Source: Candidatus Bathyarchaeia archaeon (GTDB taxonomy: Archaea; Thermoproteota; Bathyarchaeia; Bathyarchaeales; DTEX01). From it: a stretch of DNA of 64,000 bases. Under the pieces are notes generated by a model. The model worked only from the letters and a program-made list of their open reading frames with translations, had not been told where the DNA came from and did no database searches. The DNA is taken from NCBI GenBank assembly GCA_038817885.1, contig JAWAZE010000001.1:8941-72940 (forward strand), written 5' to 3'. The translations under genes were made by a program, and so were the position numbers. Shown here piece by piece: positions 3,173 to 22,671 of this stretch. How positions within the stretch are numbered: the first letter of the stretch is position 1; each line of letters begins with the position of its first letter.

Positions 3173-4162
3173 TTAATCTATTCTTCCGGAAAATAATTTC
3201 ATATAACCTTTAACTCTCTCTTTTACTCTATTGCGTGCATTTTCACCGAATTTTCGGAAGTCTTTTTCGCTTGGATTAGCTTTCCATGCCTCTATGAAGC
3301 CGTTTATAAACGCTATCGACAGGGCTGTTGAAACATTGACTTTTGTCACCCCACCAAGCTTAATTGCATCTAGCAGCGTCCCTTCCCCCCTTAAGAGCAT
3401 GATCCCTTTCTTTTCAGCATCCTTTGTGGTCATAAGGATCCCTGAAGAGCCGTGCGAAACAAGCGGTATGTGCACTCTCTCTTTTATGGCGGTCAGTCGG
3501 TCAAGTTTTATAGGCAATATGTCATCCCACAAACCATGGATTGAACCAAACGCGACTGCAAGGAAATCGCATCCGGTCCTCTTAACAAAATATTCGGCAT
3601 CATCCGGCTCAGCCATTAGATCCACAAGTAATTTGCCAGCCCTCTCACGTATAATTTTCACGGCCTCGGCTGGCGAAAGAGACATCAAGTAGGCTATTTC
3701 GGATTTCGTGAAGTAATCTTCTATTTTAGGTATCCTTCCAATCTCCGCCTCAACCGGCACGCCCTTTGCATGGCACATCTCAACAACCCGGCGGGTTAAG
3801 CGCATATTCTCATCTAATGGTAGTGAGGAGCCATCAAAGAGCACTGCTGTGAAACCAGCCTCAAGCGCCTTCTTAACCTGCTCTATTTCGGTCGCATGAT
3901 CAAGGTTTAATGCCACTCGAACATCAGTTTCAGATGCCGCAATCTTAACCATCCCGGCGGCGAGGGGCCAGCCAGCATATTTTGCGGCTCCTGGGCTAAC
4001 CTGAATTATCACATCAATTGGCTCGCCTAATTCTTCACTCAACTCCTCTGCAGCCAATATTATTGCTTGGACCATTTCCATATTGTTTGCATTAAATGCG
4101 CCAACTGCTCGCCCTTCTCTGAAAGCTGGCATAAGTATATCCTTTTCATTGACGAGCGGCAT
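3173..4162 (-). CDS. Class II ketose-bisphosphate aldolase (FBA/tagatose-bisphosphate aldolase family)
   Basis: Class II aldolase motifs appear in order: 'GAFNANNMEMVQAI', 'ALNLDHA', 'LFDGSSLP', 'VEAEIGRI', 'AFGSIHG', 'LVSHGSSG', 'KVNVSTAL'. Confidence 0.85.
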   Translation of the reverse strand: MPLVNEKDILMPAFREGRAVGAFNANNMEMVQAIILAAEELSEELGEPIDVIIQVSPGAAKYAGWPLAAGMVKIAASETDVRVALNLDHATEIEQVKKALEAGFTAVLFDGSSLPLDENMRLTRRVVEMCHAKGVPVEAEIGRIPKIEDYFTKSEIAYLMSLSPAEAVKIIRERAGKLLVDLMAEPDDAEYFVKRTGCDFLAVAFGSIHGLWDDILPIKLDRLTAIKERVHIPLVSHGSSGILMTTKDAEKKGIMLLRGEGTLLDAIKLGGVTKVNVSTALSIAFINGFIEAWKANPSEKDFRKFGENARNRVKERVKGYMKLFSGRID

Positions 4163-4233: not shown

Positions 4234-4506
4234 TTAGCCACCATCTATTAGGGGGATTATTGCAACTCTATCCCCGTCAGATAACCTGGCGTTAATTCCA
4301 CCAAGAAACTCTATGTTTTGACCATTAAGTACTATAATCGTCCCCGCCTTTGATACGATTCCCATTATTTTTTCGCCATATTTTTGGGCAGCCATCCATA
4401 GTAAGTCTCTGACAGCTGAGCCCTCAGGAAGATTAAATGTAACTTCTTTCGTCCCAAAAATTCCTCTTAAGTCTTCGTGTAAAAGCACTAGTTTAACCTC
4501 AATCAT
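4234..4506 (-). CDS. MoaD/ThiS-family beta-grasp protein with a C-terminal Gly-Gly
   Basis: 90 aa ending '...DGDRVAIIPLIDGG'. It lies immediately downstream of AOR with a 10-nt gap. Confidence 0.75.
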   Translation of the reverse strand: MIEVKLVLLHEDLRGIFGTKEVTFNLPEGSAVRDLLWMAAQKYGEKIMGIVSKAGTIIVLNGQNIEFLGGINARLSDGDRVAIIPLIDGG

Positions 4507-4516
4507 TTTGTTCCCC

Positions 4517-6376
4517 TTACCAGGCTATATGCTTAACGGCGAAATTTAAGCCCAATTCGAGGACTTTTTCCCTCCTCGGTCTACCCTCGTGGTCTAATCC
4601 CCTTTCTGCATAAAATTCGTTGAGCATAGGTTCCAGCTCAATGATCTGCCCCTTAGCCGCTCCCTCATTTAAGGGCTCCTCAAGGAACCTTTTAGGTAAT
4701 ATATCATCTTTTCGTCTCACGCCCATCCTTACGTTAAAGATTCTCTGAAGAATCCATATTCTCTCCCCAGCCCTTATTAAATCGTCCAATGTCATCTCCC
4801 ATCCGGTTACCGCTGTGTAAAGTCGAGGAAGTTCTCTCAACGGCACCCCACCGAAGAGATAAATGAACTTGCACAGCCCCAGGGCGTCCACTATGCGGCA
4901 TACATCCTGCATAACCTTAACTAAGTGGGCCTTTCCCTCAATTGTGAATCCGTTAACTTGCTTATCAAATCCTATGTCTGGAAGAAGGATTCCTCTGGCT
5001 GGAAGCATGGATAGTCCTCTTAGATGACAGGCCCCCCTCTCAGATACAGCGTACTGCAGTCCCATCTCTTTAAACCTATATGGACTGTGCATCGGGATCT
5101 CAAGTCCCTTAACTTGCATAGCGTACCTATCGGCCCCCCTACCTATCTTCTCGGCAGCCCTCATAGATCCCTCACCCAATATAGCGCCGATACCCTCCCT
5201 CCGACCTATAAGCTCAACCACCTTAATTATCGCGTCCGGGTCACCCCATCTAAGATCGATTCCTCCAGTATCATCTTTAGTTATTATGCCCCTCTCGTAG
5301 CATTCCATTGCAAAAGCTATTGTTGCGCCAGTAGATATTGTATCCAGCCCAAACCTGTTACATAAGTCATTTGCTTTCGCTATAGCCTCTAAATTATCGT
5401 TCATACAGAGAGACCCTAAAGCAGCTATAGTCTCATACTCCGGACCATAACCCTCAAGGGGGGCGTACGGTCCCTCACTTATCTTAATATATCTCCCACA
5501 AGCTATATGACATGCAAAGCAGGCTTTCTTACTTACTAAAATTGTCTCAGCCATCTTCGCACCTGATATTTTCTCAGCTCCTGGAAACCTGCCTTTCATC
5601 CAATTCTTTATTGGTAGATTTCCCATCTCCTCAAACGCCACAACACCCCTAGCGGTTCCGTAATCTGAGAGAGCTTTTAAACGCTCCCTTGTAATATTCA
5701 CTATCTCCTTCTTCAAGTCATTAAGAAGGTCTGGGTTAGCAACTTCTATATTTCTAGAGCCTAAAGTAGCTATAGCCTTCAAGTTCTTTGAGCCCATAAC
5801 AGCGCCTAGGCCGCATCGCCCCGCTGCCCTGCCATTATCGCTTATAATGGAGGATAATTTAACGAGCTTCTCGCCGGCCGGACCAATACATATAACAGCA
5901 GCCTTCTTCTCGTTTAAGTCGTTCTTAATGGCTTTGCAGGTTGTATATGTATCCATGCCCCAGTAACCACTTGCATCTATAATATCAATATTGCCATCAT
6001 GTATCCACAGGTAGACTGGCTTATCCGCTGCCCCATCAATTATAATCATATCGTACCCAGCGCGCTTAAGTTCGATTCCAGTATTAGCTGAGAAAACAGA
6101 CTCGCCCCAAATGTTTGTTAGAGGGGATCTTGATACAACAATGGACTTGCATGCCGTTGGAGCTGCGGAGCCAGTTAGAACTCCCGTTAAGAGGATCAGC
6201 TTATTTTCTGGGCTAAGGGGATCTATACTTGGATCTACTTCTTCAAGCATAATCTTAGAGGCGATACCCAAACAGCCAAGCAAATCCCTCGCCAGGGAGA
6301 AGTCTAAATCTTCTACGCGATATTTTTTGCTAGAAAGATTAACTTTCAGAACTTTACCAGCATATCCACCAACCAT
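4517..6376 (-). CDS. aor: Tungsten-containing aldehyde:ferredoxin oxidoreductase (AOR family)
   Basis: 619 aa. N-terminus 'GYAGKVLKVNLS'. [4Fe-4S] ligand motif 'CFACHIACGR' (CxxCxxxC). 'GLDTISTG' and 'ERGACHLRG' are typical of AOR-family enzymes. Confidence 0.93.
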   Translation of the reverse strand: MVGGYAGKVLKVNLSSKKYRVEDLDFSLARDLLGCLGIASKIMLEEVDPSIDPLSPENKLILLTGVLTGSAAPTACKSIVVSRSPLTNIWGESVFSANTGIELKRAGYDMIIIDGAADKPVYLWIHDGNIDIIDASGYWGMDTYTTCKAIKNDLNEKKAAVICIGPAGEKLVKLSSIISDNGRAAGRCGLGAVMGSKNLKAIATLGSRNIEVANPDLLNDLKKEIVNITRERLKALSDYGTARGVVAFEEMGNLPIKNWMKGRFPGAEKISGAKMAETILVSKKACFACHIACGRYIKISEGPYAPLEGYGPEYETIAALGSLCMNDNLEAIAKANDLCNRFGLDTISTGATIAFAMECYERGIITKDDTGGIDLRWGDPDAIIKVVELIGRREGIGAILGEGSMRAAEKIGRGADRYAMQVKGLEIPMHSPYRFKEMGLQYAVSERGACHLRGLSMLPARGILLPDIGFDKQVNGFTIEGKAHLVKVMQDVCRIVDALGLCKFIYLFGGVPLRELPRLYTAVTGWEMTLDDLIRAGERIWILQRIFNVRMGVRRKDDILPKRFLEEPLNEGAAKGQIIELEPMLNEFYAERGLDHEGRPRREKVLELGLNFAVKHIAW

Positions 6377-6517: not shown

Positions 6518-7591
6518 CTAGTATCTGCCATACTTTTTGACTAGCTCAATAACCCTCCTGTAATTTTGGAAGCTGACGTTTTTCGGTATAGAGTGATCAG
6601 AGTGATAGATGTATCCTCCATCCTCTTTAGCGATCGTTATCTTCCTCCTTATTTCCTCCTCTATCGGTCTTGGATCATCTAGGCTCATAAGTCTCGTGTC
6701 TATCCCGCCCATAAACGTAATTTTATCCCCATACCTCTCTTTTAGTTCCACTAGATCCATTCCAGCCTTAACCTCCAAAGGCTGTAGGCAGTCAATCCCC
6801 TCTTCAATAAAATATGGGATGAGATCCTTAACCCGCCCGCAGGAATGTAGAAAAACATACATCCCATGACTATGAAAGAACTGGCACAGTTCCTTAAAAA
6901 CTGGGTGGAGCTGCTCCTCAAAGTGTTTTGGTGAAAAGAAGAGACCGTTTCTGTAGCCTAAATCGCAGTAGAGGAATGCCCCATCAAATTTGAAGCCCCT
7001 CCGCATCATTCGCTCACACATATCCATGACGAGCTTGGCATCAGTCCAATATATGTCGATAACCCAATCCGGCTCCTTAATAATCGCCCTTAACAATCTT
7101 TCAGAAGCAACATATCTCTGCGCCCTATCATATCCCACCGTAGCACCATACATTATAAACCTGCCCCGACTATACTCACGGTGGAAAGATCTGAAACCCG
7201 AAACCCAATCAACCCTGTAGTCATCGGCGATGAGTCTAGGTTTAATAAGGGTCTCCCAGTCATCTTTAGTCTTACACGGGTAATCGATGATTAGGGGTGT
7301 TGTGGAATAATCCTTATAATTTTTTCTTACACCGCCATATTGATCTCTTTCAATAATATATTTCTCATCCTCATAGAGAACCTCAACAGGGAGACGTGGA
7401 CTCGTGTCCGCCTCAAAGATAGTGATCTCAAAGCCGAAATACTCATCTGGAGAAACCCCGGAAGGTAGCCCCTCTCTCCTCCAGCGGTCAATTGTTGCTT
7501 GCCAAATGCTATCATGGATCGGGACGCGATCCGCTTCATAGTGCTGTAGGATCCTTTTTATCCTCTCACGGGGCTTTAATTCACCCGACAT
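6518..7591 (-). CDS. Uroporphyrinogen-decarboxylase-fold (URO-D family) methyltransferase, MtaA/CmuA-like
   Basis: 357 aa with the URO-D/MtaA-type C-terminal half: 'VFLHSCGRVKDLIPYFIEEGIDCLQPLEVKAGMD', 'ITFMGGIDT'. It lies 2 nt downstream of a corrinoid protein gene. Confidence 0.75.
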   Translation of the reverse strand: MSGELKPRERIKRILQHYEADRVPIHDSIWQATIDRWRREGLPSGVSPDEYFGFEITIFEADTSPRLPVEVLYEDEKYIIERDQYGGVRKNYKDYSTTPLIIDYPCKTKDDWETLIKPRLIADDYRVDWVSGFRSFHREYSRGRFIMYGATVGYDRAQRYVASERLLRAIIKEPDWVIDIYWTDAKLVMDMCERMMRRGFKFDGAFLYCDLGYRNGLFFSPKHFEEQLHPVFKELCQFFHSHGMYVFLHSCGRVKDLIPYFIEEGIDCLQPLEVKAGMDLVELKERYGDKITFMGGIDTRLMSLDDPRPIEEEIRRKITIAKEDGGYIYHSDHSIPKNVSFQNYRRVIELVKKYGRY

Positions 7592-7593
7592 AT

Positions 7594-8262
7594 TTAATCA
7601 ACCCTAAACGCCCACGATTTACATATGTTTACGCCTTCAACAGCATCCTTTGCGGCGGCATCGGCACCAATCTTTTTTGCAAACTCCTCAGTTATTGGGG
7701 CGCCACCGACGATCACCTTAACCTTATCTCTTAACCCAGCTTCCTTAAGCGCTTTAATAACATTTCCCATCTCATCCATAGTGGTTGTTAGTAGTGCTGA
7801 CATGGCAACCACGTCTGGTTTATGTTCTTTAACAGCATCAACGAACCTTTCAGGAGGTACATCTACCCCTAGGTCTATCACCTCAAAGCCCGTTGCTCTT
7901 AATAGCGTCGCAACAATATTCTTGCCTATATCATGCAAGTCGCCCCTAACAGTTCCAATAACTACTTTACCAATCTTTCCGGTCTCATCGCTTTTTAGGT
8001 GGGGCTCGATGACCTTCATACCTTCCTTAACGATCTCGCCAGCCACAACAAGCTCGGCTAAGTAATATTCTTCCTTCTCATACTTTTCACCGACTATTTC
8101 TAAGCCTTTGGAAAAGCCCTTCATTATAATGTCGTAGGCGGAGATTCCTGCCTTAATGGCATCTATGCATAGTTTTTGAATGCTCTCAATGTCAAGGTTT
8201 ACGATAGCTTTCCTAATCTTATCTAAGATTTCCCCCCAGCTCATGAAATTTTCAATCACCAC
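7594..8262 (-). CDS. Methyltransferase-cognate corrinoid protein (B12-binding, MtaC/MtbC-like)
   Basis: B12-binding signature 'GDLHDIGKNIV' (DxHxxG), 'AMSALLTTT' (SxL) and 'VIVGGAP' (GG), preceded by the helical cap domain. Confidence 0.9.
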   Translation of the reverse strand: MVIENFMSWGEILDKIRKAIVNLDIESIQKLCIDAIKAGISAYDIIMKGFSKGLEIVGEKYEKEEYYLAELVVAGEIVKEGMKVIEPHLKSDETGKIGKVVIGTVRGDLHDIGKNIVATLLRATGFEVIDLGVDVPPERFVDAVKEHKPDVVAMSALLTTTMDEMGNVIKALKEAGLRDKVKVIVGGAPITEEFAKKIGADAAAKDAVEGVNICKSWAFRVD

Positions 8263-8291: not shown

Positions 8292-9608
8292 TCATATTTT
8301 ATAAACTTCTCCTTTTTCCGGCAAAATTATCTCGCCGTCTAAGTCGCTTAAGAACTTACTGAATAACCTTGGATATTCGCCATGTATTGGGAAAATCTTT
8401 TTTGGTTTAATTATTTCTAGGGACTTTCTGAGATGTAGCGGTGTTATGTGCCCGGAGACATGAATATGATACTGTGGTAAACCATAATACTCCAGCCAGC
8501 TTATAAGCCTACTAAAATCTATTTCCATCTCCTCATCAAATGGTTCAGATGCTGACAATATATAGCAGCTTCCTGGAAGTGGATTGATTTCAATAAGCCA
8601 ATTTAGATTAAAGAAGGGCAAACACATTATTATCTCGCTTTGTCTCTTAGATATCTCTTGCGGACTTATAACCTCGCTGCAATCCATAATTTTCTGCTCC
8701 CACTGGAAATACTTTTTCTTTTCTTTTTGAAATACAAGGATATCTTTAAGTCCTGGGGCCTTTAGGCGGCTATCTGAACTCAGAACATGTAGAAGATATG
8801 CTTGTTTAGGCGTGACCACAAGCCGCCTGTTACTTCTTGATGCGATCTCAAAGAACGACCTTAGTCTATCAATATCAGCGTAGGCAAACTCCGTTAAGAC
8901 TAAACCATTAGTATTCCTGACCACCATGTTAAGCTTTTCCATGACCTCACGCTCTGAAGAAACTTCAACCTCAGTCATGTTTGTATGTTCACATATAACC
9001 GCCTCGGGCCTTTCTTTAGCTGAAGCAGTTAGGAAATCCTCCGTCAATTCTGGTCTCTGCCCATGCCTTCTAAAATCACCAGTATAAATGATTGGGCCGG
9101 AAGAAGTGTAAATTATAAAGCCATATGATCCTGGGACGGAGTGATCCACATGTATTGGCATAATTTCAATCGAGCCAACCCTTATTTTGTCTCCTGTGCG
9201 GAATTTCTTGAACGTTATTCCCCTAAGGTTAAACTCCACATTTGCTGGGCGCACTTCATTTAGGGCATTAAGTATAAGGGCGGTTGTTTCACCACAATAA
9301 ACTGGTATATCTCTTCTTAAGAATGATATGTGAGCTGAGTGATCCATGTGGGAGTGTGAGAGAAAGACTGCATCAACGTATCTCTCAGATTCATCAAAAT
9401 AATAGGCTCCCTTCAGGCTGGGTAACAACCCTACCTTAATTAGCTCAGAGCCACTTTTCGGCGAGAGAAAAGGTGTAGAATAAAATTTATCTCTTAAGGT
9501 GAAAGATGCGCCGAAATCGAAGAAGATCCTTGAATCATTATCATCCACTAAGATTTTATTACCACCAACCTCGTTTACGCCGCCATAAAAAGATATTTTA
9601 ACCCCCAA
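8292..9608 (-). CDS. Metallo-beta-lactamase/beta-CASP ribonuclease (archaeal RNase J-like)
   Basis: 'ISFYGGVNEVGGNKILV' and 'FLSHSHMDHSAH' (HxHxDH), ~440 aa. I moved the start to TTG 9608: a GGAGGAGG SD lies 8 nt upstream, 1 nt after the upstream gene's TAG. The ORF-track ATG at 9632 would overlap the upstream gene by 23 nt. Confidence 0.75.
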   Translation of the reverse strand: MGVKISFYGGVNEVGGNKILVDDNDSRIFFDFGASFTLRDKFYSTPFLSPKSGSELIKVGLLPSLKGAYYFDESERYVDAVFLSHSHMDHSAHISFLRRDIPVYCGETTALILNALNEVRPANVEFNLRGITFKKFRTGDKIRVGSIEIMPIHVDHSVPGSYGFIIYTSSGPIIYTGDFRRHGQRPELTEDFLTASAKERPEAVICEHTNMTEVEVSSEREVMEKLNMVVRNTNGLVLTEFAYADIDRLRSFFEIASRSNRRLVVTPKQAYLLHVLSSDSRLKAPGLKDILVFQKEKKKYFQWEQKIMDCSEVISPQEISKRQSEIIMCLPFFNLNWLIEINPLPGSCYILSASEPFDEEMEIDFSRLISWLEYYGLPQYHIHVSGHITPLHLRKSLEIIKPKKIFPIHGEYPRLFSKFLSDLDGEIILPEKGEVYKI

Positions 9609-9609
9609 C

Positions 9610-11379
9610 CTATGCCTCCTCCAGTTTTTCATAGCTTAGCGTTTCCAGCAACCTTTTACATGAATTTACTATTGTTAAAAGTGTGTGTGGTGAGGTGAAG
9701 AAGCTGAAGACTCTTGTATACTTGAGCGACAACGCCTTTTTAATATTCTTTATGCTTCCGTTTGACATAATATAACCGCTTATAAACTCCCTTACAAGAT
9801 CCTCAGCAACATTTGTTGTCAGTAAAATATAATGTCCTGAATAATAAAGAAACTCGGCAATATCCCATGCTTGATCTCCTCCCCTCCCCGCCTGTTCAAG
9901 GTCTACAAAAAATACCCTTCCGTCAGATGTCACTATAATGTTCTCTGGCTTACAGTCGCCAATAGATACACCTAGCATGTGAACTCTAGCTATCTCACAC
10001 CCTATTTTTCTGATCACCATAAGAAGATTCCTCTTCTCCTCTCCCACAGCTCTGCATAATTGTTTGATTACCTTAGAAGCCGCCATACCCTCGATATGTT
10101 CTTGGATGATGATTTTCTCTTCTGGACTAACATATAATATTGCTGGGACATTAATTCCATGAGAGGACAGGAATCTATTCATCGTGTATTCTTTCTCAAG
10201 CCTAGTTTTCCCTAGTACAGCAAAGCTCCTTGTGCCCAGCGTCCAAAGGGTTATGGGAAACCACTTCCAACCGTACCAATCCTTAAATATTTTAGCAACA
10301 AATTTCTTCTCTTCTTTTTCATCGAAAGATCTTAATATATATACAGTATTAAGAACCCCACCCAATTTCTTCACACTGATCGTTGAAATATGTTTTTTAA
10401 GAAGTTTCCTCTTAATGAAGTCTTTCATATTTGTTTTTTCAGTAAATGGCACTACGCCTAATGCAGTTGGCACAAAAATATGTTTCTTGGGGTTCTCAAG
10501 CATTCTAAGAGGGTTTTTGAAGAAATCCTTTGAATGATGCGCCATATATATTCTGTTCTCATCTAAAAGAGACTCTCTAATCTCCGGGAAAATTCCAAGG
10601 ATATAGCGGATTATGTTATTTCTGACAACTTTGAATAAGCTAATTAAATGATAGCCACGTATCTTCTTAGCTTTCATAATATACTCATCAGATATTTTAA
10701 GGAAGCGCTCGTCGGCAGCGCGGAGGATTCCCTCATCAATAAGCTCTTTTATCGCCGCTCTAAATCCCTCCATCATTCTAGTGAGGTTCTTCTTTCTTTC
10801 CTCTTCCCAGAGAATATTCAGGAAGCGATAGGATATCAGTGGAAAAAGGCTTGCCCTGCGCATTAAATATTCATACATGAAATATTCCGGCTCGATTAAA
10901 AGGTTTCTTGACATTTCTGGGAAGCCTAAAATCAAGTTAACTAAGATGCTATTTACAATATTCTTTTTTACCTTAACCTCTTGGTTCCACAAATATTCGG
11001 CACCCATAATTGGCTCGTAAGGCGTTATAAGGTTTTCGGAGAGTATCCCGCCAAAGTTTTCATGTTTAATATCGTTCTCAAAGCTATTTTTGTCAACGAT
11101 TAGCAAGCGAACTTTTTTATCCGTTAACCATTCAGACCAGCACCTTAAAGCACTTCTCTTCGACTCAGTTATAGCAAGAACATCTATTGCACTTTTCTCA
11201 TCCGCATATCCTCCAGCGTATGCCCCATAGATTAGACCGGCAAAAACATTGGCAACTTTATCCTTCAGGAGAGAGCTAATATTCTTCTTTAACTCCCCAT
11301 TTAATCGAGCCAGCATCTCTCTAAATAATAATATAATCCCCCTTATAAAATCCTTATTATTGTTTCCAGATCCTCTCAA
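9610..11379 (-). CDS. Two-domain protein: Pol-beta-superfamily nucleotidyltransferase-like N-terminus plus RIO/Bud32/Kdo-kinase-like C-terminus
   Basis: N-terminus 'GLIYGAYAGGYADEKSAIDVLAI' (G-x-n-D-h-x pattern of minimal NTases; the second acidic residue is not obvious). C-terminus 'HMLGVSIGDCKPENIIVTSDGRVFFVDLEQAG' is the catalytic-loop/DxE(DFG-like) pattern of small eukaryote-like kinases. Confidence 0.55.
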   Translation of the reverse strand: MRGSGNNNKDFIRGIILLFREMLARLNGELKKNISSLLKDKVANVFAGLIYGAYAGGYADEKSAIDVLAITESKRSALRCWSEWLTDKKVRLLIVDKNSFENDIKHENFGGILSENLITPYEPIMGAEYLWNQEVKVKKNIVNSILVNLILGFPEMSRNLLIEPEYFMYEYLMRRASLFPLISYRFLNILWEEERKKNLTRMMEGFRAAIKELIDEGILRAADERFLKISDEYIMKAKKIRGYHLISLFKVVRNNIIRYILGIFPEIRESLLDENRIYMAHHSKDFFKNPLRMLENPKKHIFVPTALGVVPFTEKTNMKDFIKRKLLKKHISTISVKKLGGVLNTVYILRSFDEKEEKKFVAKIFKDWYGWKWFPITLWTLGTRSFAVLGKTRLEKEYTMNRFLSSHGINVPAILYVSPEEKIIIQEHIEGMAASKVIKQLCRAVGEEKRNLLMVIRKIGCEIARVHMLGVSIGDCKPENIIVTSDGRVFFVDLEQAGRGGDQAWDIAEFLYYSGHYILLTTNVAEDLVREFISGYIMSNGSIKNIKKALSLKYTRVFSFFTSPHTLLTIVNSCKRLLETLSYEKLEEA

Positions 11380-12288: not shown

Positions 12289-12726
12289 GTGGAAATAGCT
12301 GTGGCACATATTGAAAGAAAGCTTGAAAAGTTGAATCATTTAATTGAGAGACTTAAAGATGAAGTTTCAGCAGGCGCGCTATTAATTGTTGAGGGAGAAA
12401 GGGATGTTGTTTCTCTCAGGGCGATTGGAATCAAAAATAATGTGATAGCTATTAAGTCTGGCGGAAAAACTCTTCAGGAGATCATAGATGAAATTTCTTT
12501 CTCGAATAAAGAAATTATATTGCTAACGGATTTTGATAAAAGAGGCAGGGAGCTTGCAGGGCGCCTATATAAATCTCTTGGGGGGATGAAGGTCAAAGTT
12601 AATTTGATGTTTTGGAAAGATATGTGTGAGTTGCTTGGCGGCGACATAAAAGACATAGAGGGACTAGCAATCTGCCTAGAGAATCTGAAGAGGAAAGTTG
12701 AGAAAGGGGCATCATGTGTAGATTAA
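12289..12726 (+). CDS. Small Toprim-domain protein (COG1658 / RNase M5-like, small primase-like)
   Basis: Toprim motifs 'LLIVEGERDVVSLRAIG' (conserved E) and 'ILLTDFDKRGRELA' (DxD). GTG start. Confidence 0.7.
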   Translation: MEIAVAHIERKLEKLNHLIERLKDEVSAGALLIVEGERDVVSLRAIGIKNNVIAIKSGGKTLQEIIDEISFSNKEIILLTDFDKRGRELAGRLYKSLGGMKVKVNLMFWKDMCELLGGDIKDIEGLAICLENLKRKVEKGASCVD

Positions 12727-12858
12727 AGGTTTACCTTAAAAGGATAAAAATATATGCAAGATATTAAAGAAATAATTTAAGGTTACTAAAATTAAAATTG
12801 CAGGGGACTCGATGCATTATTAATTTGGTATCACCTTATTATTTGGGGGTTATGGCTT

Positions 12859-13998
12859 ATGAACGCGCATTCACAAGCAGTAAAATATGTAATTAAAGCG
12901 AAGTTTGAGGTTGATGGGATAGTTGAGAAACCAGATGTTATCGGTGCAATCTTCGGTCAAACAGAAGGGCTTTTCGGCGCAGAATTAGATTTAAGGGAGC
13001 TCCAGAAGTCTGGCAGAGTTGGTAGAATAGAGGTTGAAATAACTTCACAGAAAGAAAATAAAACATCCGGGACAATAATCATTCCGACGAGCCTAGATAA
13101 GGTTTCAACGGCAATTATAGCTGCGAGTGTTGAGAGCATAGATAGAATTGGGCCATGTGCCGCTAAAATAACTTTAGAAAAAATTGAAGATGTTAGGGAG
13201 AGTAAACGTAAGGCTATAATTGAAAGGGCAAAAGAGATACTTCAGAGATGGAGTCTTGAAACATTGCCCGAGACCGAGGAGATGCTAAGAGAGGTTTCAG
13301 AAACAATCAGATTAGCAAAGATAAGGGAGTTTGGGTCGGAGAAGCTTCCAGCCGGGCCGGAAGTGGATTCTGCAAAGGAGATAATTATTGTTGAGGGGAG
13401 GGCAGATGTAATAAACCTCGTGAGACACGGCATATATAATGTTATAGCATTAGAGGGCATCAAGATACCTGAAACAATTATTAAATTAACTAGAGAGAAG
13501 GAGGCGACAGCTTTTCTAGATGGTGATCATGGTGGGGACCTAATTCTTAAGGAGCTGTTGAATGTCGCTAATATAAAGTATGTGGCTAGAGCTCCAAAAG
13601 GGAAGGAAGTTGAAGATTTATCAGCTAAGGAGATTGAAGAAGCCTTACGTAATAAGGTTTCGATTGAGGAGATTTTTGAGCGAAAAAAGAAGCGTAAAAG
13701 AATTCTCGTACCAAGGGAGATAGTTGCGGCGGCGGAGGAGCTTAGGGGGACCTTTGAAGCAATTCTTTTCAATGATAGAATGGAGAGGGTTGGTAGGCTC
13801 CCCGTGAGTGAGCTTGCTGAGAAACTAAAGGAGGTCGAGGGCGTAAATACTGTGGTTTTCGACGGGATAATAACTCAAAGGCTCGTTGATACGGCTAACG
13901 AAAGAAATGTCAAGTATCTTATTGGAGCCCGTATATCGGATGTAATAAAGCAGCCCCTAGGGGTCTCTCTACTAACATTCGACGATATACTTGACTAA
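12859..13998 (+). CDS. dnaG: Archaeal DnaG (Toprim primase-like protein, exosome-associated)
   Basis: N-terminus 'YVIKAKFEVDGIVEKPDVIGAIFGQTEGLFG' is characteristic of archaeal DnaG. Toprim motifs 'IIVEGRADVINL' and 'FLDGDHGGDLI'. Confidence 0.9.
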   Translation: MNAHSQAVKYVIKAKFEVDGIVEKPDVIGAIFGQTEGLFGAELDLRELQKSGRVGRIEVEITSQKENKTSGTIIIPTSLDKVSTAIIAASVESIDRIGPCAAKITLEKIEDVRESKRKAIIERAKEILQRWSLETLPETEEMLREVSETIRLAKIREFGSEKLPAGPEVDSAKEIIIVEGRADVINLVRHGIYNVIALEGIKIPETIIKLTREKEATAFLDGDHGGDLILKELLNVANIKYVARAPKGKEVEDLSAKEIEEALRNKVSIEEIFERKKKRKRILVPREIVAAAEELRGTFEAILFNDRMERVGRLPVSELAEKLKEVEGVNTVVFDGIITQRLVDTANERNVKYLIGARISDVIKQPLGVSLLTFDDILD

Positions 13999-14013: not shown

Positions 14014-16416
14014 TCAACCTTTTCCAAAAAATTCGAGTAGCGTCTGCGCCTTCCCAGTCTTAGGGGGCAACAAATCATTCTCCTTAATGCCAAATAGAGA
14101 AAGTATTCTCAGCGCCGCTGGGATAATTTGATTTGTTACATAGTATTCTATATCAATCTCATTATATGTCGCTAAAAGGTATGGTTTTGCCCGCTCATGA
14201 AGCTTACCTGAGCCAGCCATTATAACATAACCAACCTTATCACCAACAGTTAATGTCCAGCCCTCCTTCTGAAGAAGCCTTGCGGCTTCGACGTGTGGCG
14301 CCCTTACCTCATACTCCTCAGGAGGTTTTGTTAAAGTCTTCCATATTATTAGGTCACGGTACGGGATCCTCTTCTCCCTCAAGCTCGTTATATATCTACG
14401 TACATATTCCACGGCTTTCCTGACAGATTGCTCCCTCAAAATTACTTCTAAAACCTTTTCCTGGATGTTCTTTGCGACCTCTGCCCAGTCCCCTCTAACT
14501 ACCTCTAATCCAACTATGTCGAGCCTCCCATCCGGCATTAAGCCGCAGTAGCGCTTCTTCGCCTCGGTGAAGAGCACGCGCTTATAAATCTTGTCTGGCT
14601 TTATCTCTAAACCGAATCTTTCCTCAATAGTTTTAGATAGCTTTTCAATTTTCTCAGGCTCATTTTTCACGAAGATGCTGTCAGTGTCGCCGTAAATTAC
14701 CTCTAAGCCGAGACTCTTAGCAATCTTAATAGTATCCATAATAATGTGCCTACCCCATGCCGTAACTGCCTCGGCGACAGGCTTAATGTACCATCTGGCG
14801 CCTATCCAGCCAGCATAGCCATATGTTGCATTCGCAATCACTTTAATTGCTTTTTGACGAGAATCAAGAAGCCTATACTTAACGGTCCCAGGATCAGCTT
14901 TCTTAAGCTCCGCCCTCACATAATCTCTCGCTTTAATAAGTTTTGTGAGAACCTCACGATAAAATCCTGGCGGCTCCCTCCTAAACTTATGATTAACTTC
15001 GGGCGCTATGAAAACCCCGGACTCCGGCTCCGGCTCTTCAGGCGGGATGTATGTATCTGGCGAAGCATTATAAGCTATCATTATGTTAGGGTACATTGAT
15101 TTAAAGTCTAAGACGGCTACGTCTTCATGGATTCCAGGCTTAGGCTCTAAGACAAGAGCCCCAGCATATGGTGTATATGGTCTCTCGACCTTCTTTGGCA
15201 CCAGCTCGCTTATTTGGTACAAGTGACGTATCAAAAACCATTCAACCCTAAAGCCGACTGCTGCTGTACCGATGTGATCTAGAGGTAAGCCGACTAGGCT
15301 TGAGAGCTGAATGGCAAAGTCTAGGATGGCTTCAGCTATACCCATTATACATATCGTATTATCCATAGAAAATTTTAGCAGCACCGGTCTCTTTGCAGGG
15401 TCATCCCAGTATTGGGCATATTCAACATCCTCTATTAATGTTCTCTCCTCAATCCTCATGATCCCTAGGTAGTCGGCTATATTCTCAAGAGTCTTAATTT
15501 TGACCTCAGGGAACTCGTCTGCATAATCAAATAAGTCTATATTAGCCCTGCCAGTAATGGAGATATGCCCATATGTGCTTGTATGCGGTTCTGTATTCGC
15601 CCTGTCAATCTTTAGAGATAGCCCATTGATCCCTGCTCTTGCCATCAAATATGGTATGTCCTTCCTGTTGGTTTCAAAGCCAACAATTATATCCGGGTCA
15701 AATTCTCTCAAATATTTTATGAAATCGCTGATGATCTTTCCATCCTCTCCGACGTTCTCCGTAATGAACTGTTTCTCTTCGCCAGTGTTAGTTTTGGCTG
15801 AAATTATTATGATGGGGTTCTTTTCAGGCTTCGGCGAGCCTTTTGGGCTATAGCATATAATTGAGAAACCCAGGATTTTCAATTTTGGGTTCTCAATAAT
15901 CTCTGGTAAATATTTTGGTCTCGATGTTGCAACCAACACTTTATCAACTTGCATATTTAATACATTAGGCTCCTCCTCAGCTTCCACCTCATGCCAACCG
16001 CATGGGACAATATTATTATCAATCATATATCGCATAGAATATCTAATATCATCCTCAAGAAAGCCGCCGACGCCATTAACCCTTGAAATCGCCTTAATAT
16101 ACTCTTGCACTATATCTGGATCTTGGCAATAAACTTTAACGACTTTCACGGGTTTTCCAAAAAACTTCCGATCTACAACCTCCAAGCCAGTTATGTATGG
16201 TAAGCTGGCGCTCAACCGCTTTATCCTCTCAGCTATTTTCTCAGCGTCTTCCCCCGTCTCCGGAAGCACATAAAAGTATGTTATGAAGTCCCTGTCTATG
16301 AGTAAAACCCTCTCCCCCCTATCATCTATACCCCAAAGCCAGACCTCAGGATTATGCTCTCTAACCTCATAATTTATATCCAGCAACCAGAAGCGGTACA
16401 AAGGCAACTTTCGCAC
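14014..16416 (-). CDS. polB: Family B DNA polymerase
   Basis: 800 aa. Motif A 'LDFKSMYPNIM', motif B 'KVIANATYGYAG', motif C 'VIYGDTDSIFV'. The N-terminal exonuclease region starts 'WLLDINYEV'. Confidence 0.95.
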   Translation of the reverse strand: MRKLPLYRFWLLDINYEVREHNPEVWLWGIDDRGERVLLIDRDFITYFYVLPETGEDAEKIAERIKRLSASLPYITGLEVVDRKFFGKPVKVVKVYCQDPDIVQEYIKAISRVNGVGGFLEDDIRYSMRYMIDNNIVPCGWHEVEAEEEPNVLNMQVDKVLVATSRPKYLPEIIENPKLKILGFSIICYSPKGSPKPEKNPIIIISAKTNTGEEKQFITENVGEDGKIISDFIKYLREFDPDIIVGFETNRKDIPYLMARAGINGLSLKIDRANTEPHTSTYGHISITGRANIDLFDYADEFPEVKIKTLENIADYLGIMRIEERTLIEDVEYAQYWDDPAKRPVLLKFSMDNTICIMGIAEAILDFAIQLSSLVGLPLDHIGTAAVGFRVEWFLIRHLYQISELVPKKVERPYTPYAGALVLEPKPGIHEDVAVLDFKSMYPNIMIAYNASPDTYIPPEEPEPESGVFIAPEVNHKFRREPPGFYREVLTKLIKARDYVRAELKKADPGTVKYRLLDSRQKAIKVIANATYGYAGWIGARWYIKPVAEAVTAWGRHIIMDTIKIAKSLGLEVIYGDTDSIFVKNEPEKIEKLSKTIEERFGLEIKPDKIYKRVLFTEAKKRYCGLMPDGRLDIVGLEVVRGDWAEVAKNIQEKVLEVILREQSVRKAVEYVRRYITSLREKRIPYRDLIIWKTLTKPPEEYEVRAPHVEAARLLQKEGWTLTVGDKVGYVIMAGSGKLHERAKPYLLATYNEIDIEYYVTNQIIPAALRILSLFGIKENDLLPPKTGKAQTLLEFFGKG

Positions 16417-20895: not shown

Positions 20896-22671
20896 TTAGA
20901 GGGATATTTTGTGCAGAATTTCCTCTGGCTTAAATTCCTCTTGGGATCTTATCGAAGCCTCTTCAACATATATCTGAATAGCATATCTCATGGAATCCCT
21001 ACTTATTGGTATAAAATCTTCTTTAGCGTTAAAGTACTCCATGAGTGATGCGGAGCATGCGAATCTTAAAGCTTTATCTTCGAGTCTTGCTGAGAACATA
21101 AGAGTATCATCTTTTATCTCGCTGAGTATGATCTCCCTGGCCTCGGTGATCAACTGATATGCATCCTCAGTTATCATTACTGACTTACATGGAAATTCAT
21201 TTTTAACGAGCGGGTGTTGCGTTTCAATTGCATAAATTAGGGTTAAGTGATCCCTTATCGCCTGCGCCATTCTCCCAATATTTAGTTTTCCAAGAAGGAC
21301 TTTCATCTGTCGTTCCGCTATCTCCATGAAGCGCTCCTTAGTTAAGCGGTGGAGTCTGCATAACATCCGATCCTCAATGGCCCTGAAATTTGGATCCTGG
21401 ATCGTTACATTATACCCCCTCTTACGAACCTCGACATTGTAATTTACGGTAAAGAAAGAGGTAAACTTGTATGGACCTATAACCTCCCGCTGGGTCTCAT
21501 ACTTTATTTCGCCCTGCTCCATGGCGATCTTAAGCGGCTCAACCATACCCTTATATCTGAAGAAATCATTAAACTCTGGAATTATGAAGTTGAACGTTCT
21601 CCCAGCGTAAGCTTGCCCAATCCTAATAAACCTAGCAGGCGTCATTCCCCCACAATAACGGTTTCTTCCAGGTATTCCATGTGCTGGCAATCCCATGCTC
21701 GGTTTCCCAAATACCATGTCTCTTGTCGCAAAACTTTTCCCTGTTCCAGGGTCACCGAATAGCGCCAGAGACCATCCTGTTCTCTTAACCATTTTTCCAC
21801 ATGGGTTAATTACTTCAGCGTTTGCCAATCCATACTGTTGAGTTAAGCTAAGTAAGCTATCAAAGTATAAGATTGGCCCAAAAATATCTTGAAGGTAGCT
21901 TGACAGCTTCAATATGTTGAAGGTTTTACCAAAATTTATCGCCTCTTCGAGTCTATTCTGAATTAGGTCAGTTAAATATGAGTTTAACTCCGAATCCATT
22001 TTCTCAAGGAGATTTCTTTCCTCATCTAATGAAACGGTTCCCCTCCTCTCCTCGGTTAGAGCTGCAGTTTGGATTTTAGGTTCTATTTGGAGCATCTTTT
22101 TTCCTTCACTTATCTCATTTTCAACTATTGGAAGCATCTCTCTTGGTATACTCCATTCTCTATATTTTTCGCCAATGTAAGACGTGGATATTATGCCTAA
22201 ATCTTCCAGATCGCTCAGCATTTCATAGGCCTGAGGTAGTTTAACGATCTCTTTAATAGTGTATGAGTCTATGATGCCGCCGCCCTTAACAATGGTCTTT
22301 AAGAAATTCATTCCAACTGAACCATACATTAATTTAAATCTGCGCAATCCATCACTAACAATCTTCCATGAACCATCGAGGAAGAGCTTTCCATTAATGA
22401 GCATGTAATATTTTCCCTTAAAGGTCGCCCAGTTTCTAGGCTCATATTTTTGGAATATCTGCTTTAGAACATCATCCGTTACTCTTGAAGATATCTCTGT
22501 GGAGACTTCATCTTCATCTATATCCCAGCAACAACTAAACCTTTCAAAATAAGGTATCTTTAACCATCTACCAATATCAAAGAGATGTCTTATTGTGTAA
22601 GCCTTCTTTAAGAGCTCCCTTCTTTCGGAGATTTTCTCCTGATGCTCTGAAATCAACAGCTTCCGCCCCAC
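20896..22671 (-). CDS. Orphan AAA+ ATPase, MCM/Lon(BrxL)-like core with an uncharacterised ~300-aa N-terminal region
   Basis: Walker A 'LFGDPGTGKSF'. Walker-B-position 'FNFIIPEFNDF' (compare MCM 'IDEFDK'; Asp replaced by Pro). 'LKIAMEQGEIKYE' (compare MCM 'EAMEQQTIS'). 'AIEDRMLCRL' (compare 'LLSRFDL'). No MCM OB/zinc N-domain is recognisable. Confidence 0.5.
   Translation of the reverse strand: MGRKLLISEHQEKISERRELLKKAYTIRHLFDIGRWLKIPYFERFSCCWDIDEDEVSTEISSRVTDDVLKQIFQKYEPRNWATFKGKYYMLINGKLFLDGSWKIVSDGLRRFKLMYGSVGMNFLKTIVKGGGIIDSYTIKEIVKLPQAYEMLSDLEDLGIISTSYIGEKYREWSIPREMLPIVENEISEGKKMLQIEPKIQTAALTEERRGTVSLDEERNLLEKMDSELNSYLTDLIQNRLEEAINFGKTFNILKLSSYLQDIFGPILYFDSLLSLTQQYGLANAEVINPCGKMVKRTGWSLALFGDPGTGKSFATRDMVFGKPSMGLPAHGIPGRNRYCGGMTPARFIRIGQAYAGRTFNFIIPEFNDFFRYKGMVEPLKIAMEQGEIKYETQREVIGPYKFTSFFTVNYNVEVRKRGYNVTIQDPNFRAIEDRMLCRLHRLTKERFMEIAERQMKVLLGKLNIGRMAQAIRDHLTLIYAIETQHPLVKNEFPCKSVMITEDAYQLITEAREIILSEIKDDTLMFSARLEDKALRFACSASLMEYFNAKEDFIPISRDSMRYAIQIYVEEASIRSQEEFKPEEILHKISL

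Follow-up and report, generated by a model that had tools for sequence, protein, structure and literature searches.

The window analysed here, a stretch of 64,000 nucleotides (64 kb) from a contig of a Candidatus Bathyarchaeia archaeon (JAWAZE010000001.1), carries on its minus strand a gene for a methyltransferase-type corrinoid protein, followed almost immediately by a gene for a TIM-barrel protein of the URO-D superfamily. Judging from sequence and gene arrangement, the two proteins very likely cooperate in corrinoid-dependent methyl transfer, and by analogy with characterised systems the pair is probably part of a three-part machinery consisting of a substrate-side methyltransferase (MT1), the corrinoid protein and an acceptor-side methyltransferase (MT2). 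The host is a hot-spring Bathyarchaeia metagenome-assembled genome (MAG), that is, a non-methanogenic TACK archaeon, in agreement with the TACK-like origin proposed in the original prediction, which had been made from the letters of the window alone.

Recurrent couples of a corrinoid protein and MtrH, the methyl donors or acceptors of which are unassigned, have been described in Bathyarchaeia genomes (PMC7886697). The conserved URO-D-fold orthogroup studied here is tied to a corrinoid protein and in one clade also to MtrH, and thus provides a cloneable candidate for the missing methyltransferase. By its genes, the module seems to work like the known corrinoid methyl transfer of the Mto, Mtv and Mta types, yet it falls outside MtaA/MtbA, HemE, the Mlp proteins and the core methionine synthases. 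Such a system is not surprising in principle, and it supplies a specific candidate where the one-carbon (C1) metabolism of Bathyarchaeia still poses a question. As an MT1, the URO-D protein would open a new class of methyl substrates for non-methanogenic archaeal methylotrophy, and as an MT2 it would belong to a split analogue of MetH that depends on tetrahydromethanopterin (H4MPT); in either direction, a widespread mis-annotation as "uroporphyrinogen decarboxylase" would be corrected.

Linkage of the two genes

The TAA stop codon of the corrinoid gene (7594-7596) and the ATG start codon of the URO-D gene (7589-7591) are separated by 2 nt, which implies co-transcription and, probably, translational coupling; both minus-strand open reading frames (ORFs) and their spacing had been placed correctly in the original prediction. 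Related loci were retrieved with a 17-sequence alignment as the query, resulting in 80 loci from GTDB species genomes and 80 from metagenomes, and scans with hidden Markov models (HMMs) covering every ORF of these loci looked for corrinoid, URO-D-family and MtrH genes. A B12-binding ORF was present within 10 kb on either side of the URO-D orthologue in 22 of the 80 GTDB loci (12 of the 51 that extend 3 kb or more to either side) and near the orthologue in 11 of the 38 metagenome loci with room on both sides, and it was the immediate same-strand neighbour in all cases but one fragmentary contig.

Clustering of 144 orthologues assigned this linkage to two separate clades with opposite gene orders, comprising 33 loci in which the genes are 2-42 nt apart or overlap. 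The corrinoid-upstream clade contains the window (at least 81% identity, 25 loci, 4 exceptions within the clade) and shows junctions from an overlap to 42 nt in 14 GTDB loci, while the corrinoid-downstream clade comprises 8 loci of 64-67% identity. Since the loci counted are related by phylogeny, the finding to rely on is that of two clades with two gene orders, which points to selection beyond inherited synteny alone. Together with the tight coupling, the two gene orders argue for a functional partnership of the URO-D and corrinoid proteins.

What weighs against this partnership is that 71 of the 104 loci with enough flank, including all bacterial ones, have no corrinoid gene nearby. Such a proportion (about 70% without a corrinoid gene within 10 kb) would be expected if the adjacency were non-functional and the orthogroup represented a corrinoid-independent enzyme, for instance a metal-dependent decarboxylase or a sugar-modifying TIM-barrel enzyme; the frequent carbohydrate-enzyme neighbours, the profile searches in which HemE is as close as MtaA, and weak fold matches to sugar epimerases are consistent with this too. 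We consider this explanation improbable, as the adjacency occurs in two independent gene orders, the B12-binding gene, where it lies within 10 kb, is the immediate same-strand neighbour (33 loci), and the chance of this is by our own estimate well under 1% per locus (few copies per ~2000 genes). Furthermore, the gene on the other side is MtrH in one clade, the NCBIfam models lean to MtaA/CmuA over HemE (66 versus 37 members), and genomes without the adjacency carry dispersed corrinoid genes. Dispersal of the partner genes around the genome is frequent in general.

The two proteins and a putative metal site

The corrinoid protein is composed of an N-terminal helical cap (Pfam B12-binding_2, PF02607, 63.4 bits) and a Rossmann B12-binding domain (B12-binding, PF02310, 112.5 bits). 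The full B12-binding signature on which the original prediction had relied is present, with DLHDIG at residue 108, SAL at 155 and GG at 186. Against TIGR02370, "methyltransferase cognate corrinoid protein", the protein scored 206.7 bits and thus narrowly under the cut-off of 215.3, and the scores with substrate-specific models (MtgC_2, 207.5 bits; MtbC, 188; MtaC, 122-149) were all far below the respective cut-offs. By these scores it is a generic methyltransferase-cognate member without substrate assignment. The start of its gene is ambiguous: a GTG at 8262 would give 222 aa, and an ATG at 8244, which most public annotations prefer, 216 aa. Corrinoid orthologues across Bathyarchaeia share about 60-85% identity, with DxHxxG and SxL in 48 of 48, and members of this lineage show 60-76% identity irrespective of whether they are alone, paired with the URO-D gene, or accompanied by both URO-D and MtrH genes. 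In MAG B26-2, the URO-D and corrinoid orthologues lie on separate contigs.

Two further settings of the corrinoid gene were observed. A stand-alone orthologue with 76% identity lies between a GH116 glycosidase gene and a raffinose-synthase-like gene in three loci (L012-L014, 4911-11170), and therefore itself in a carbohydrate context; here, a 108-aa ORF overlaps the corrinoid 3' end and a URO-D paralogue is located 5.5 kb upstream. In Guaymas B26-2 and its relatives (L097, 5846-8591; L098-L100, 8906-11645), a lone corrinoid orthologue is followed by a conserved AAA_5 ATPase gene (547 aa), a gene for a 368-aa protein without Pfam match and a PadR regulator gene. Activase families of the RamA, MtoD and AE (activating enzyme) types in Pfam were found neither among the annotated genes of the window nor among those of L001-L016 and L097-L100, and because a RamA-type activase was seen in no annotated locus, the AAA_5 ATPase could be a candidate for an alternative corrinoid chaperone or activase.

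The URO-D protein matched Pfam URO-D with 61.1 bits (E 1e-16) and contains LHSCG at residues 248-252, as predicted. Its original designation as MtaA/CmuA-like holds at the level of the superfamily but not in the sense of a true MtaA, since it scored only 34-43 bits with models of this type, the cut-offs of which range from 235 to 400 (TIGR01463, 39.6 bits versus 235.4; NF040654, 34.2 versus 400; PRK06252, 43.0 versus 244). Pfam Meth_synt_2 (PF01717) gave no match, and PRK00957, an archaeal methionine synthase model, only 15.6 bits. A PDB search with the single sequence returned nothing significant (best E 0.14), whereas a profile of 66 family sequences matched HemE (E 2e-8), MtaA (4e-8) and, as the fourth-best hit, the chloromethane MT1 CdmB (4e-6), all about equally weakly. 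Among the 66 members, the NCBIfam model for methylcobalamin:coenzyme M (CoM) methyltransferase was matched by all, mtaA_cmuA by 64, hemE by 37 and PRK00957 by 4, with scores far below the cut-offs. The AlphaFold2 (AF2) model (predicted local distance difference test, pLDDT, 97.3; predicted template modelling score, pTM, 0.94) resembled most closely Methanosarcina mazei MtaA (4ay8/4ay7; template modelling score, TM, 0.70-0.73; 14-15% identity), followed by HemE (TM 0.60-0.69, 12-15% identity), MetE and, weakly, TIM barrels of sugar epimerases. Taken together, these comparisons assign the protein to a clade of its own within the URO-D superfamily, one that inclines towards the corrinoid-methyltransferase side and lies outside all named families considered, and we regard it as a putative metal-dependent corrinoid methyltransferase.

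The family is large: among cluster representatives (50% identity), 8757 matched at E<=1e-3 and 295 of them at E<=1e-30. Identity within the orthogroup amounts to 65-90% in Bathyarchaeia, Thermoprotei, Brockarchaeota and MAGs labelled Nitrososphaerota, and to 56-60% in Anaerolineae, Armatimonadota, Zipacnadia, Latescibacterota and unclassified bacteria. Public annotation reads "uroporphyrinogen decarboxylase (family protein)" or "hypothetical". Brockarchaeota have been described as "lacking MtaA" (PMC8065059), and the existence of an orthologue with 75% identity in a Brockarchaeota MAG (L038) shows that standard annotation overlooks the family.

This public annotation and the presence of HemE among the fold matches would be explained if the protein were a true HemE and its pairing with a corrinoid protein reflected tetrapyrrole metabolism. 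We judge this extremely improbable. No match to TIGR01464 (hemE) was obtained at E<=0.01, and identity to HemE structures is 12-15%; the HxC/E/DH metal-type site is not present in HemE, which is free of cofactors, several paralogues exist, and genes for the biosynthesis of haem or sirohaem were not found near the pair. The results with TIGR01464 and the NCBIfam families effectively refute an identity with HemE.

Across the 66-member family, H249, G252, E273, D279, Y327, D332, H333 and S334 are near-invariant, while position 251 is occupied by Cys in 32 and by Asp in 31 members, with Cys being invariant within the orthogroup only. An identical 20-residue signature (R10, D21, W30, W37, W112, R126, D203, D210, S220, H249, C251, E273, D279, E313, K317, Y327, H330, D332, H333, S334) was present in 71 of the 79 orthologues that could be aligned from the 80 GTDB loci; the others differ by truncation or conservative D->N replacement only. 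In the family profile alignment, H249-x-C251 coincides with LHICG of MtaA, and the spacing of H249, C251, E273 and D332/H333 (2/22/59-60) is that of the Zn ligands of MetE (H641/C643/E665/C726) and MesA (216/218/240/301) (PMC7857596). Where the second Cys ligand would be expected, the orthogroup has D332/H333, resulting in the ligand pattern H-C-E-[D/H]. The putative site thus looks like the Zn site of the superfamily with the last Cys replaced by Asp/His. It could serve either thiol activation, as in an MT2 or methionine synthase, or as a Lewis acid acting on the leaving group, as in an MT1; Zn is present in some O-demethylase MT1s, while CdmB has no metal (PMC13222342). Cys251 was considered as a marker of corrinoid linkage and rejected, given that the signature is essentially the same in linked and unlinked orthologues (80) and that the Cys/Asp split at position 251 lies among more distant family members.

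Further URO-D paralogues were noted in related loci. A second type (370-381 aa; L015/L016, 14250-15395; L022, 11116-12228; also L023, L024 and L026) has HSHG instead of HSCG and GSEGG instead of HSDHS, and shows 32% identity in its C-terminal half. It was noted near the corrinoid-URO-D pair in a number of loci from the clade to which the window belongs, but is absent from the window. On two single Bathyarchaeia contigs (L010, L011), 3-4 URO-D-family paralogues within 21 kb are interspersed with genes for ABC transporters, ThuA/GHL6, an FGGY kinase, and GH43-like and GFO/IDH/MocA proteins, and no B12-binding gene is nearby.

Third component and direction of methyl transfer

In the corrinoid-downstream clade, a divergent gene beside the URO-D gene encodes a homologue of MtrH (PF02007, 240 bits). 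It was found in GTDB loci L065, L067, L072, L073 and L074 and in the independent metagenome contigs L101, L160 and L172, and its position is taken by a GH3 glycosidase gene in the remaining two loci of this clade. In the Mto system of Methermicoccus shengliensis and Archaeoglobus, MtoB is the MT1 that demethylates methoxy-aromatics, MtoC the corrinoid protein that carries the methyl group, MtoA, a member of the MtrH family, the MT2 that passes it to H4MPT, and MtoD the activase (PMC8630106). By gene content, the set of URO-D, corrinoid and MtrH genes in the sister clade has the composition of this biochemically characterised system. Because MtrH stands beside an orthologous pair and MT1s of the URO-D fold are known (MtvB, OdmB, VdmB, MtoB and CdmB; PMC13222342, PMC8630106), the URO-D protein is likelier to be an MT1 whose MT2 is encoded outside the window. 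In the original prediction, the URO-D protein had been taken as the MT2, with an MT1 of the MtaB/MttB/MtgB/MtvB type missing; this assignment is not supported, as MT1s of the MtvB type are themselves of the URO-D fold and the third gene of the sister clade is MtrH. Nor is the two-component system envisaged there indicated, the three genes being simply dispersed in most genomes, although a two-component reading would have a precedent in MtsA/MtsB.

By analogy with Mto, the URO-D orthogroup is a candidate methyltransferase for the corrinoid protein-MtrH couples mentioned above (Loh et al. 2021; Evans et al. 2015). Loh et al. described such couples in Bathyarchaeia without an identified substrate-specific methyltransferase, also raised an anabolic alternative, in which an acceptor would receive methyl groups that leave H4MPT through MtrH and the corrinoid protein, and noted a metE homologue co-localised in Ca. 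Methanomethylicus (PMC7886697). With the couples of Bathy-6, BA1/BA2 and Methanomethylicia and with the Bathyarchaeia-specific lignin O-demethylase MtgB/MtgC/MtgA (Yu et al. 2023), the system studied here shares the host class, the corrinoid lineage and an MtrH-type MT2 acting on H4MPT.

The full MT1 model, which we favour tentatively and rate as somewhat short of probable, would proceed as follows. The URO-D-fold enzyme, acting on the substrate side, would bind a methylated substrate, most likely an O-methyl compound, at the site formed by H249, C251, E273 and D332/H333, with Zn2+ as the probable metal. The corrinoid protein, co-translated with it, would in its Co(I) form attack the methyl group, yielding a CH3-Co(III)-corrinoid protein, and an MtrH-type MT2, encoded elsewhere in the source genome and adjacent in the sister clade, would move the methyl group to H4MPT for oxidation or for acetyl-CoA formation via the Wood-Ljungdahl pathway. 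The direction of methyl flow, the metal, H4MPT as the acceptor in this organism and the substrate are what we infer in this model. For each corrinoid gene, and also within single loci (L010, L011, L015), there are several URO-D paralogues, and some MAGs have two copies of the orthologue, a pattern reminiscent of catabolic systems in which MT1s are many and corrinoid proteins few. In several lineages, GH4, sulfatase, DeoC and a heparinase-like protein are encoded by neighbours on the same strand, and nearby genes encode GFO/IDH/MocA, GH3, GH116 and transaldolase, which hints at methylated sugars or methoxy compounds derived from glycosides as the substrate.

Several points speak against the MT1 model. 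The best structural and NCBIfam matches are CoM methyltransferases of the MT2 type, and the MT1 CdmB is only the fourth-best profile match; the H-x-C...E spacing recurs in MetE, MesA and MtaA, where the Zn site activates thiols (PMC7857596). An identity of 56-60% between archaeal and bacterial members, together with the near-invariant signature, suggests one fixed small substrate, unlike catabolic MT1s, which diverge fast. Neither MtrH nor an activase was found in the 64-kb window, and the neighbours there (RNase J-like and aldehyde:ferredoxin oxidoreductase, AOR, genes) are uninformative on function. Because the carbohydrate context recurs in only 4-5 independent lineages and is absent from the window, methylated sugars and glycoside-derived methoxy compounds are put forward as a hypothesis only.

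In a wider form of this hypothesis, the orthogroup would be the missing methyltransferase both of the corrinoid protein-MtrH couples in Bathyarchaeia and related TACK archaea and of those bacterial polysaccharide degraders that carry it, and would act on O-methylated carbohydrates or methoxy groups derived from glycosides. We regard this extension as decidedly unlikely; if true, it would imply an anaerobic, corrinoid-dependent demethylation of sugars feeding H4MPT and the Wood-Ljungdahl pathway. In the literature searched, no paper linking corrinoid methyltransferases to the demethylation of methyl sugars was found, and the sugar demethylation described there is aerobic and depends on an O2-dependent P450 (PMC6292453).

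The methyl flow might also run in the opposite direction: CH3-H4MPT would supply the methyl group that MtrH places on the corrinoid protein, and the Zn enzyme of the URO-D fold would act as an MT2 and methylate a thiol. The acceptor could be homocysteine, as in a split, H4MPT-dependent analogue of MetH or of the "core" methionine synthases, or another small thiol as in the case of MtaA. This direction, a serious rival that on balance we find rather unlikely, would fit MtaA as the closest structure, the match of all 66 family members to the models for methylcobalamin:CoM methyltransferase and the match of 4 of them to PRK00957. The high conservation across domains points the same way, as do the housekeeping-type surroundings in bacteria and in the clade of the window. 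CoM synthesis is not expected in Bathyarchaeia that lack mcr, which counts against this direction. MesA, MesB, MesC and MetE belong to the same TIM-barrel superfamily, are Zn-dependent and, in the case of the core MetE-like enzymes, take the methyl group from corrinoid proteins (PMC7857596), and the ligand spacing of MesA and MetE, H-x-C-x21-E-x~60-(C), matches that of the metal site described here (PMC7857596); the anabolic reading of the couples was raised by Loh et al. (PMC7886697). Unlike MesA and MetE, the URO-D protein gave no Meth_synt_2 match, its last ligand is Asp/His and not Cys, so that a single thiolate is left, which is atypical for thiol-alkylating Zn sites, and its genes often stand in a carbohydrate context. 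Two orthologue copies in some MAGs and many paralogues, clustered within single loci, are also at odds with an MT2, and co-transcription with GH4, sulfatase, DeoC or heparinase-like genes is hard to square with methionine synthesis, for which MesC has already been predicted in anaerobic archaea possessing the Wood-Ljungdahl pathway (PMC7857596).

The presence of only two coupled genes, with no third methyltransferase within 64 kb, is reminiscent of MtsA/MtsB, a two-gene unit of a URO-D-superfamily enzyme and a corrinoid protein with no separate MT1, in which MtsA is a bifunctional MT1/MT2 (PMC8630106). One URO-D-fold enzyme would then perform both half-reactions without a pterin methyltransferase, and so shuttle methyl groups from one small molecule to another, methylthiols being an example; an HxC motif with Glu in the site would be compatible with this, and Mlp clusters of non-methanogens have been proposed to act on methyl-S and methyl-Se compounds (PMC10418091). 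Such a self-contained system is improbable here. MtsA/MtsB is a methylthiol:CoM methyltransferase, and CoM is unlikely in this organism; the window offers no CoM context, and identity to SCMT-type enzymes is only ~15%. The adjacency of MtrH in the sister clade ties a pterin methyltransferase to the system and points to three components there, and since the signature residues are identical between the clades, the same chemistry is expected in both.

Returning to the MT1 model, the arrangement of a URO-D-superfamily methyltransferase gene adjoining a gene for a corrinoid protein of ~22 kDa with cap and Rossmann domain is shared with the Mto, Mtv, Odm, Vdm and Cdm systems, the MT1 role being presumed here. 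As in Mto, the host is probably an archaeon that uses H4MPT and not CoM, and the third component is a pterin methyltransferase of the MtrH family, but in the sister clade only. At 357 aa (~41 kDa), the URO-D protein is smaller than MtoB (47-48 kDa) and CdmB (429 aa); it has a conserved putative H/C/E/D-H metal site, in contrast to CdmB, which lacks a metal, and its kinship with CdmB is at the profile level only (E 4e-6). Unlike clusters of the Mto and Mtv types, the window contains no activase, MT2 or transporters for aromatic compounds, and the genes are dispersed in most genomes; Yu et al. did not find AE in their Bathyarchaeon either (PMC10989822). MtaA/MtbA with MtaC/MtbC of Methanosarcina (PDB 4AY7/4AY8) provide the best structural match, an HxC aligned to LHICG and the same corrinoid family, but identity is 14-15%, the scores are far below the cut-offs, Asp/His stands where the second Cys ligand would be, the window offers no mcr or CoM context, and the third component in the relatives is MtrH, not MtaB or MttB.

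MtgB of the lignin O-demethylase MtgB/MtgC/MtgA has been described as a protein of ~300 aa without homology to known methyltransferases and confined to Baizomonadales (PMC10989822); this description sets it apart from the URO-D protein, which has 357 aa, a clear URO-D fold and relatives in several archaeal and bacterial phyla. The type 1 mlp clusters of Kountz & Balskus resemble the pair in combining MtaA-superfamily proteins with a corrinoid protein in non-methanogens; by definition, they contain a Ram activase and several Mlps, with >25% identity to SCMTs that have been characterised (PMC10418091). Membership in these clusters was rejected, as the URO-D protein has 14-15% identity to MtaA, the URO-D gene is single and no Ram gene lies in the window.

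Genomic surroundings of the pair

The genes around the pair are listed in Table 1. Both direct neighbours are as stated in the original prediction, with the RNase J-like gene upstream and the AOR gene downstream. Likewise, its statement that the 64 kb hold no other methyltransferase and no mcr was borne out: HMM searches of all six frames of the window yielded no second URO-D gene, no second B12-binding gene and no MtrH, and there were no mcr or CoM genes among the annotated genes.

Table 1. Features at and near the corrinoid-URO-D pair (positions within the window)
Feature	Position	Strand	Basis
Methyltransferase-type corrinoid protein gene	7594-8262	-	Pfam/NCBIfam and motifs
Spacer from corrinoid stop to URO-D start, 2 nt	7592-7593	-	read from sequence
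URO-D-superfamily TIM-barrel protein gene, 357 aa	6518-7591	-	Pfam URO-D and AF2 model
RNase J-like MBL/beta-CASP gene, 446 aa, upstream neighbour	8292-9632	-	HMM
Kdo/RIO-like kinase gene, 589 aa, upstream of RNase J-like gene	kinase and RNase J-like genes together 8292-11379	-	HMM
AOR gene, 619 aa, downstream neighbour	4517-6376	-	HMM
MoaD/ThiS-like protein gene, 90 aa, after AOR	AOR and MoaD-like genes together 4234-6376	-	HMM
Class II (bacterial-type) fructose/tagatose-bisphosphate aldolase gene	3173-4162	-	Pfam F_bP_aldolase, 254 bits

The identical URO-D protein is encoded on contigs from at least 5 NCBI Bathyarchaeia MAGs with the same local synteny in each, and the nearest GTDB species representatives are hot-spring Bathyarchaeia MAGs (isolate prefixes JZ, ZZQ and QZM). 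The RNase J-like gene overlaps the end of the kinase gene by 23 nt, and this kinase-nuclease pair directly upstream of the corrinoid gene is kept in 12-13 related loci, while AOR follows the pair in 6 close loci only. The 141 nt between the URO-D stop codon and AOR are AT-rich and include an oligo-T tract behind the stop codon and a TATA-like TTTTAATAAATAAA, so that AOR is probably a separate transcription unit. The AOR and RNase J-like genes were rejected as functional partners, their synteny being confined to the close clade. The aldolase, of the bacterial type in a Bathyarchaeon, is encoded two genes downstream of AOR; beyond the AOR, MoaD-like and aldolase genes follows a gene for a PhoU-domain protein. 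Other genes of the window have housekeeping functions (DNA polymerase B, ribosomal proteins, aconitase, glycosyltransferases, H+-PPase etc.).

At 330-2048 on the plus strand, a 572-aa protein is encoded, in which ~260 N-terminal residues without Pfam match are followed by an Mpt_N domain of the methylene-H4MPT dehydrogenase MtdA/B type (102 bits) and a Rossmann domain. This architecture is unusual for an archaeon and hints at an NAD(P)-linked C1 metabolism with H4MPT. As a co-travelling partner of the pair this gene was discarded, since it is syntenic in the closest MAGs only, and no functional inference was drawn from it. An ORF of ~590 aa (586 aa in the public gene call) without Pfam match lies at 20896-22671 on the minus strand, between genes of the histone deacetylase family and an M24 peptidase. 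Finally, two successive Toprim-domain proteins (145 aa and 379 aa) are encoded at 12289-13998 on the plus strand beside the family-B DNA polymerase gene (14014-16416), and this arrangement of Toprim, Toprim and polymerase B is kept in all related MAG loci.

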